This document shows positions 12,145-41,604 of a stretch of DNA of 64,000 nt, in pieces. Position 1 is the first letter of the stretch. The number at the start of each line of letters is the position of its first letter. The translations under genes and the position numbers were made by a program. The notes under the pieces are model-generated. The model made no database searches, had not been told where the DNA came from, and saw nothing but the letters and a program-made list of their open reading frames with translations. Source of the DNA: Candidatus Freyarchaeum deiterrae (GTDB lineage: Archaea; Asgardarchaeota; Jordiarchaeia; Jordiarchaeales; Jordiarchaeaceae); NCBI GenBank assembly GCA_037305845.1, contig CP147778.1, forward strand, positions 800,001-864,000, in the 5' to 3' direction.

Positions 12145-13707
12145 TTATTCCCATTCTATTGTTGAGGGTGGCTTGTTTGTGATATCGTAGACTACCCTAT
12201 TTATTCCCTTAACCTCGTTTACTATTCTGGAAGCAATTCTTTCTAGTATGTTCCAGTCGAGTTTTGCAAAGTTTGCGGTCATGGCATCCTCGCTTTCCAC
12301 TGCTCTTATGGCTACGACGTTTTCATAGGTTCTCTCGTCCCCCATTACCCCGACGGTTTTTACAGGTAGTAGAACAGCAAAAGATTGCCAGAGTTTGTTT
12401 CGGTAATCGGATTTTTGGATTTCTTCCTGTATAATGACGTCAGCCTTGCGGAGAATGCTGAGCTTCTCTTTGGTGACCTCGCCAATTATTCTGATGGCTA
12501 AGCTTGGACCCGGGAAAGGCTGTCTCCAAATCACTTCGTCGCTCAGTCCTAGCATTTTGCCTACCTTTCTTACCTCATCCTTGTAAAGTGACGCTAATGG
12601 TTCAACTAGTTTTAGAGTCATGCCCTCGGGAAGAACCACATTGTGGTGGGACTTGATCCTCGAAGCGGATTTGCTGGTTGCAGCTGACTCAACCCTATCT
12701 GGATAAATTGTTCCCTGGCCCAGATACTCGAATTTTCCATAGGTGTTCTCAAGCTCCCTCGCCTTCGCCTCAAAAGTCCTTATAAAAGCGTCGGAAATGA
12801 TTCTTCTTTTCTTTTCAGGATCCGTCACGTCCTCAAGTCTACTGAGAAAGGTTCCACTAGCATCAACGAAGTGAACGGTCTCCAATTGGAGGCGTTTAAA
12901 TCGTTGGATAACCTCCTTAGCTTCGTTTTCTCTCAGCAATCCGTTATCAACAAATACACATTGGAGATTTTTTCCAATCGCCCGGTGGAGCAGAACCGCT
13001 GCGACCGTGGAGTCGACTCCTCCGCTCACAGCCATTATTACCTTAGCCCCGCCCACGGTTTTCTTTATGTTCCGGATTGTTTCTTCTATCCAGTCCTCCA
13101 TCCTCCAAGTTGCTTCGCATCCACATATTCTCTTTACAAAGTTTTCCAGAATCTTGTTACCCTTTTCCGTGTGGCGTACCTCTATATGAAATTGAACGCC
13201 GTATATTTTATCCGGCACATTTCGGTAAGCTGCTATGGGGCAACCATCGGTGTGTCCTATTCTTTCAAACCCTGGTGGAAGATCTAACACCTGATCCCCG
13301 TGACTCATCCAGACTATCTCGGTATCTTCTAGACCCTGGAAGAGGTCTTCTTTATTATCAACGTTAAGTACTGTTTTTCCAAACTCTCTCATGTCCAATT
13401 TTTTAACGCTACCGCCAAGAACATATGCTATCAGCTGATGGCCGTAGCATATGCCCAGAATCGGGAATCCCTTTTCCCCACACCAGGTGAAAAATTCTTT
13501 GGAAACAAGAGGACTGTTCTCATCGTACACACTGCTAGGTCCACCGGAAAAAATGATGCCTTTTATGTCAGGAATTTTTTCCAATTCCTCTAGTGAGATG
13601 TCATAGTTGCGGATCTCTGAATATACTCCGAGTTCACGTACTCTCCTCGAAATGAGATGAGTATACTGTCCGCCAAAATCCAATACAATTATGATTTCTC
13701 TATTCAA
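12145..13707 (-). CDS. guaA: GMP synthase, fused GATase + ATPPase
   Basis: DFGGQY, GICYGHQ, SGGVDS, IKSHHNV, KPPSTIEWE. Confidence 0.96.
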   Translation of the reverse strand: MNREIIIVLDFGGQYTHLISRRVRELGVYSEIRNYDISLEELEKIPDIKGIIFSGGPSSVYDENSPLVSKEFFTWCGEKGFPILGICYGHQLIAYVLGGSVKKLDMREFGKTVLNVDNKEDLFQGLEDTEIVWMSHGDQVLDLPPGFERIGHTDGCPIAAYRNVPDKIYGVQFHIEVRHTEKGNKILENFVKRICGCEATWRMEDWIEETIRNIKKTVGGAKVIMAVSGGVDSTVAAVLLHRAIGKNLQCVFVDNGLLRENEAKEVIQRFKRLQLETVHFVDASGTFLSRLEDVTDPEKKRRIISDAFIRTFEAKARELENTYGKFEYLGQGTIYPDRVESAATSKSASRIKSHHNVVLPEGMTLKLVEPLASLYKDEVRKVGKMLGLSDEVIWRQPFPGPSLAIRIIGEVTKEKLSILRKADVIIQEEIQKSDYRNKLWQSFAVLLPVKTVGVMGDERTYENVVAIRAVESEDAMTANFAKLDWNILERIASRIVNEVKGINRVVYDITNKPPSTIEWE

Positions 13708-41092: not shown

Positions 41093-41231
41093 GAATATAC
41101 CAACTCATCTGACTCAATGTGACGAGAAATTCAGAACCGCTGCAAAACCTCAATATGGAACATATGTTTATTTCTAATACTTCTTAAGCTTGCAAGCTTC
41201 CGAGTATTCTACTATTACATCTAAACCAGCA

Positions 41232-41452
41232 CTGACATACTCCCAACCCTGAAGGGTTAGGGGTTCTACACTTCTACTACTGTTGTTAGTGTTAGAAGTG
41301 TTGGACGTGCCACCGCCCAGTTAACGGCTTCCGCACCCCTCTCTCTTCGGGGTGAGCAAGCCCTATTATCCTCTTTTCTCTTTTTTCACTATTTAAACTC
41401 CACGCAATTCATCCCCGTCTTTAAAATAATGGGGCTTTCTTGCTAATCCTCT
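41232..41452 (-). mobile_element. Non-autonomous IS200/IS605-family element (PATE-like) with probable omegaRNA
   Basis: Left: TTAC target followed by AAAG guide and hairpin. Right: GAAC guide at -35, hairpin AACCCTTCAGGGTT and TCAG end. No ORF inside. Confidence 0.85.
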
Positions 41453-41604
41453 GTAATAATTGAGTTTGAATGGAAGGCGCCCTCTTGATTAGCTGAGTGG
41501 TTTATTACAAGCTTTATATTTGGGAAGTTTATTAATAGTGAACTAGTCTAAAGTATGTTTTTAGATTGGGTTAATTGAAAATTTTCAAATATGCAGGGTG
41601 ATAT

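Follow-up and report, generated by a model that had tools for sequence, protein, structure and literature searches.

What is the 221-bp stretch at positions 41232-41452 (minus strand) of the window, which is bounded by TTAC and TCAG and lies between an fmdE-like gene and cdc48? The window, the whole 64,000-nucleotide stretch that we analyzed, represents bases 800001-864000 of the genome of an Asgard archaeon, which is complete in a single contig of 3,576,204 bp (40.7% G+C). The stretch had been predicted from its sequence to be a derivative of IS200/IS605 that lacks ORFs and has ends of the IS608 type. This assignment is supported by the ends, by the copies found elsewhere in the genome and by the coding analysis, in which no ORF of at least 40 amino acids overlapped positions 41093-41570, the element included. 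Read on the minus strand, with 41452 as its first base, the element carries all of the features listed in the original prediction, base for base and at the same places. The features are as follows.

41453..41456, minus strand: TTAC, the target tetranucleotide, left cleavage site and predicted TnpB TAM, in the flank just 5' of the element
41393..41452, minus strand: left end, with the AAAG guide, the left subterminal hairpin and a GATGAATTGC block
41438-41435, minus strand: AAAG guide tetranucleotide, element nucleotides 15-18, directly 5' of the left stem
41434-41413, minus strand: left subterminal hairpin, a CCCC(14-nt loop)GGGG stem
41390..41397, minus strand: TTTAAATA, an archaeal TATA-box-like element with a putative promoter function
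41232..41366, minus strand: predicted omegaRNA scaffold, equivalent to the last 135-145 nt of full-length elements, including the tnpB 3' end
41363-41326, minus strand: helix 1 of the scaffold, its top formed by cacccc/ggggtg
41318-41303, minus strand: helix 2, part of the scaffold
41301-41268, minus strand: helix 3, with the 9-bp stem acacttcta/tagaagtgt
Right-end hairpin, minus strand: helices 4/5, part of the scaffold
41263..41266, minus strand: GAAC right guide tetranucleotide at -35 to -32, G being base -35
41242..41262, minus strand: subterminal hairpin of the right end; its loop is TTCA and a single T is bulged
41241-41240, minus strand: A-10 and G-9, just after the right hairpin
41232..41235, minus strand: TCAG right cleavage tetranucleotide, the final bases, where homology among copies ends exactly
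41212..41231, minus strand: predicted guide segment TGCTGGTTTAGATGTAATAG, 20 nt of flank, assuming read-through of the RNA past the right end

Terminal inverted repeats are absent, and subterminal imperfect hairpins are present at both ends. The 271-nt region covering the element folds with z = -5.3 relative to shuffled sequences. As DNA, the end hairpins alone are weak folds (z about -1), and the support for them comes from conservation and covariation, not from folding energy. A double change from C-G to T-A occurs in the left-hairpin stem of another copy (c301873), and the right hairpin of the copy at 41232-41452 has a C-G pair where most copies have T-A, again a double change. The order of the left-end motifs is kept in distant archaeal relatives, upstream of tnpB.

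A search of the host genome for more copies, as suggested in the original prediction, gave 18 matches with boundaries at query positions 25/29-249/250, and identified 11 short copies of 205-225 bp at nine independent sites together with two full-length elements. The halves of two split matches, between which the tnpB ORFs of the full-length elements are located, lie about 1.2 kb apart. TTAC stands immediately 5' of the left end in 11/11 short copies and 2/2 full-length elements. The right end reads ...GTATGTCAG, or a near variant, before unrelated flanks in nine short copies and both full-length elements, and the tandem-duplicate copies at genome positions 3054057 and 3055576 are divergent within the right end. 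Chance does not explain the boundaries of the element: they are the points at which homology begins and ends in about 11 short copies and two full-length elements. One internal deletion junction is common to all short copies. At genome positions 274872-277679 and 3054057-3055788, two pairs of short copies lie inside local tandem duplications of about 1.2-1.5 kb with shared flanks, which indicates that some copies arose by segmental duplication rather than by transposition.

Both full-length elements (genome 3249303-3247879 and 2434930-2436346) are tnpB-only, with ends matching those of the short copies, and are organized in the order TTAC, left end, TATA box, leader of ~85 nt, tnpB and right end. 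The last 135-145 nt of their right end correspond to the right half of the short copies, and the scaffold overlaps the final ~110 nt of tnpB. The ends of full-length elements and short copies are homologous, the relation on which identification as a PATE depends; the element is also of non-coding length and multi-copy, as expected of PATEs. The prediction that a TnpB with matching ends is encoded elsewhere was borne out by these two cognate elements. Their ORFs, of 409 and 418 amino acids, contain the Pfam domains OrfB_IS605 and Cas12f1-like_TNB, and the two proteins are 94% identical to each other. The TnpB encoded at genome 3247913-3249142 (L010:1535-2764, minus strand) carries Asn at the position of the RuvC-I Asp (VNLGV); the TnpB at genome 2435100-2436356 (L013:391-1647) keeps this Asp (VDLGV) and has an intact active site. 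Throughout the TnpB clade, the canonical RuvC-II Glu is replaced by Gly and an alternative Glu is conserved ahead of the TS motif, a pattern that matches the TnpB groups with a "rearranged catalytic site" predicted to be active by Altae-Tran et al. (PMC10691335). The nearest relatives of these proteins are found in Ca. Jordarchaeum madagascariense (a same-genus MAG) and in other Asgard and archaeal MAGs.

To characterize the right part of the element, we built a covariance model, R1, from 11 intact right ends. The model matches the tnpB 3' end in 28 archaeal loci, from Jordarchaeia, Wukongarchaeia, Bathyarchaeia, Alkanophaga, Methanohalarchaeum and others, and scores the copy at 41232-41452 at 139.6 bits, compared to 144-146 bits for the full-length elements. 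Across 29 archaeal sequences, in an alignment fitted to the R1 model and with helices 4/5 doubling as the DNA hairpin, base pairing is kept in 94.6% of cells versus about 48% with slid partners, and both sides change in 26/31 pairs. Among the copies of the host genome, variants per column are fewer in stems than in loops (0.32 vs 0.58, P = 0.025), and 11 of 20 stem variants keep pairing, as judged by simple binomial bounds; both results are suggestive only. The scaffold is positioned at the tnpB 3' end, overlapping both the coding end and the right end, so that a guide would come from the flank. The conservation at tnpB 3' ends and the strong covariation support the earlier proposal that the right part of the element is an omegaRNA, here the predicted conserved scaffold of the family. 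No Rfam family matched in the window at gathering thresholds. At relaxed thresholds, HgcC (RF00062) scored 18.8 bits, and 19.7 bits in a relative; membership in this family was rejected, as these values are far below the gathering threshold of 50 bits, and the likeness is limited to the right-end hairpin. A search of viral contigs with a 16-nt left-end motif gave 11 matches, none with the RNA model, which are thus chance matches.

The element pairs the guides AAAG and GAAC with the cleavage tetranucleotides TTAC and TCAG, respectively. The right end of IS608 is cleaved at TCAA, which pairs with GAAT at positions -35 to -32 so that the last bases of the two tetranucleotides face each other; A-10 and G-9 engage in triples (PMC3201880). 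It was proposed that TCAG/GAAC is a compensatory change of TCAA/GAAT, and the relatives agree with this proposal in the IS608 pairing register: GAAC goes with TCAG (in one case CCAG) and GAAT with TCAA, with one exception. As judged from these sequences, the distribution of the two states is what the pairing rule predicts; the states follow clades, and hence represent few independent events.

The mode of insertion was assessed by comparison with congeners. The copy c947859 is missing from the orthologous spacer of a congener (G002), where TTTAC runs directly into the homologue of the right flank, with a local score of 54 for the empty site compared to 27.9 ± 4.2 for shuffled sequences. Conversely, the same congener harbors a short copy (G002:C162) 88% identical to the copy at 41232-41452, the flanks of which are contiguous in the host genome at 2445758. 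These two clean presence/absence comparisons, both of other family members, demonstrate insertion 3' of TTAC without target duplication. At the second site, about 2445753-2445758, the host genome has TTAT rather than TTAC, a difference that would fit an ordinary substitution and a TAM-escape change equally well. Empty sites were thus recovered for other members of the family; for the copy at 41232-41452, with its predicted empty site TTAC|TGCTGG, no clean one was found in congeners, because the locus is rearranged there. The fmdE-like gene and cdc48 are separated by just 512 bp in the host genome, including the element (window 41093-41604), and congeners have a 316-aa GMP-synthase-like gene between them. 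Three congeners carry about 1.1-1.2 kb of extra DNA at this place; in the one examined (G003, L068:2426-3376) it contains a 316-aa GMP-synthase (C-terminal domain) gene. The host genome lacks this gene at the cdc48 site and has a 44%-identical paralogue at window 12148-13098. Of the remaining copies compared, the c2246527 locus is about 0.8 kb longer in congeners, and c85802 has no usable synteny.

A PATE itself need not carry TnpA. No Y1 TnpA (PF01797) was detected in the complete host genome in a search to which the controls responded, and the best match by tblastn with TnpA ORFs from the tnpA loci of relatives had E = 0.33. TnpA is present in four of five congeners. The element was predicted to be mobilisable in trans: its intact ends agree with this structurally, but the complete genome offers no resident enzyme to move it, and the copy is currently fixed in place. 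Likewise, the proposed search for tnpA and tnpB with matching ends recovered the two tnpB elements and no tnpA in this genome. In relatives of this family, the left end is followed by tnpA, or by a remnant of its C-terminus, and then by tnpB; the remnant (...YIEEQKG; L032:1380-1500, L126:600-700) shows that the tnpB-only forms derive from tnpA+tnpB elements. Another congener (G005), the genome of which has TnpA, contains about 38 RNA-model matches, many of them located at the ends of contigs, a pattern suggestive of recent expansion. The copy examined there (G005:C72, L102:1330-1610) is a related gene-less element of ~270 bp with TTAC/AAAG and GAAT/TCAA ends.

Homology to the full-length elements, a shared deletion junction, the end code, a covarying fold and precise presence/absence sites were thus all observed, and we consider it highly probable that the 221-bp stretch is a PATE, derived by internal deletion from a tnpB-only IS200/IS605 (IS608-like) element and not autonomous. 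In the proposed scenario, one deletion, inferred to be single from the shared junction, would have removed about 1.2 kb of tnpB and joined the left end (TTAC target, AAAG, left hairpin and TATA-like box) to the last ~135 nt, which comprise the omegaRNA scaffold, the GAAC guide, the right hairpin and TCAG. The short derivative would then have spread as single-stranded DNA by the action of Y1 TnpA in trans, inserting 3' of TTAC with no duplication. Transcription from the TATA box would start within a few nucleotides of the scaffold 5' end, and the guide RNA would read 16-20 nt into the flank and load onto the TnpB of a full-length element, such as the 2435100-2436356 copy with its intact active site. 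The resulting TnpB-RNA complex would cut the vacated site (TTAC + flank), favoring retention of the element.

The expression step of this scenario was assessed from the promoter-like box and from the predicted guide. The box TTTAAATA is unchanged in both full-length elements and in eight of the 11 short copies, and relatives have a TATA-like box at the equivalent place. The RNA model begins 31 nt downstream of the first T of the box; archaeal transcription usually starts about 25-30 nt downstream of the TATA box. The motif TTTAWATA is enriched upstream of long ORFs in the host genome, without a sharp position, and the 9-17 tRNAs reported by aragorn are too few to calibrate the distance from TATA box to start. 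The box, assigned from its consensus only, is the only pointer to the putative transcription of the guide RNA. No strong T-run terminator follows the predicted guide. TnpB omegaRNAs take their guide from the flank beyond the right end. The first 16 nt of the guide predicted in this way have no other match with at most one mismatch in the host genome, and at the self site the guide follows TCAG instead of TTAC. Nor did a search with the guides reveal any other target in this genome with TTAC and at most one mismatch. We estimate the chance that the copy at 41232-41452 still produces its guide RNA as slightly short of even.

The alternative that survives best accepts descent as a PATE and regards the element as an inert fossil that has ceased to be transcribed into a functional guide and is never mobilised, its conservation being a matter of history only. 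In addition to the lack of TnpA in the host genome, the other copies are only 74-85% identical to the copy at 41232-41452 (15-26% divergence), which indicates that the short-element family is old in this genome and may be inert. The loop of the left hairpin is degenerate in this copy compared to the others, and archaeal tnpB elements generally show little recent mobility (PMC10691335). Decay of this kind is opposed by an RNA-model score almost that of the full-length elements, by the intact TATA box, guide tetranucleotides (both) and cleavage sites (both), and by the compensatory nature of the substitutions in helix 5. On balance, we regard inertness as a real possibility that falls somewhat below an even chance.

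A second alternative is that a full-length tnpB element lost its gene locally, leaving a short form that never moved. In Haloquadratum, IS605-type elements are known to have lost their core through repeat-mediated deletion (PMC3119063); however, the same junction is present in 11/11 short copies at nine independent sites, and the 88%-identical short copy of the congener occupies a site at which the host genome is contiguous and lacks the element, making an in-situ origin very improbable. Equally improbable is a domesticated, TldR-like cassette guiding a nuclease-dead TnpB for transcriptional control, which would suit the D to N change at RuvC-I of one cognate TnpB and the location of the element about 150 bp upstream of cdc48, but not the lack of any TTAC-adjacent match to the predicted guide in the host genome, the origin of that guide as mere insertion flank, as in every copy, or the retention of TnpB inside a transposon with intact ends.

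Returning to the PATE interpretation, one speculative and rather unlikely extension concerns the numbers of copies. The founding deletion would have placed the TATA box ~30 nt before the scaffold and thereby created a guide-only gene, and the spread of this form (11 short copies vs two full-length elements) would reflect selection for guide-only hyperparasites that use the TnpB of the full-length elements to defend their insertion sites, the Asgard lineage having later lost TnpA.

The element is a clean example of a kind already described, the PATE, rather than a new system, and the known working of such elements is unchanged by it. Its value lies in a clearly delimited, Asgard-archaeal, guide-RNA-only IS605 derivative for which ends, code, fold and cognate TnpB have been mapped. 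This is of use in annotation, where such repeats are otherwise called unknown ncRNAs, and it provides a compact test case for the use of an omegaRNA in trans by a TnpB whose RuvC site is rearranged.

Among known systems, IS608 of Helicobacter pylori (PMC3201880) shares the TTAC target, the AAAG left guide, the right guide starting from -35, A-10/G-9 after the hairpin and a cleavage tetranucleotide that occupies -4 to -1. The two differ in the last pair, which is A:T in IS608 and G:C here (TCAG/GAAC); the spacing between TTAC and the left hairpin, 19 nt in IS608, is 18 nt here and 22 nt in sister copies; and, unlike IS608, the element at 41232-41452 lacks both tnpA and tnpB. The RNAs found at tnpB 3' ends provide a second parallel. 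The Halobacterium salinarum VNG_R0052 is a PATE-derived intergenic copy transcribed as an ncRNA, and a UUCA tetraloop in the right-end hairpin is common to sotRNAs, HgcC and PATE RNAs (PMC4615843); the predicted RNA described here likewise maps to the tnpB 3' end, and the copy at 41232-41452 has a TTCA loop. The PATE-like elements of Geobacillus stearothermophilus, also gene-less IS200/IS605 derivatives with conserved ends, frequently encode omegaRNAs, which only a TnpB supplied in trans by other IS copies can use (Meers et al., PMC10055086). They are bacterial, with TnpA in the genome and activity demonstrated experimentally, whereas here TnpA is absent and the element is known from its sequence alone. 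Further close counterparts are the PATEs of Haloquadratum walsbyi, gene-less IS605 derivatives, some of which are core deletions of tnpB-only (IS1341-type) elements (PMC3119063). Both are archaeal, of non-coding length and multi-copy, without target duplication, with near-terminal palindromes and no terminal inverted repeats, and in genomes in which tnpA is absent or broken. The element described here differs in its Asgard host, in its TCAG/GAAC end code, and in having kept a promoter-like box and the full RNA scaffold instead of the 52-bp, ends-only form.
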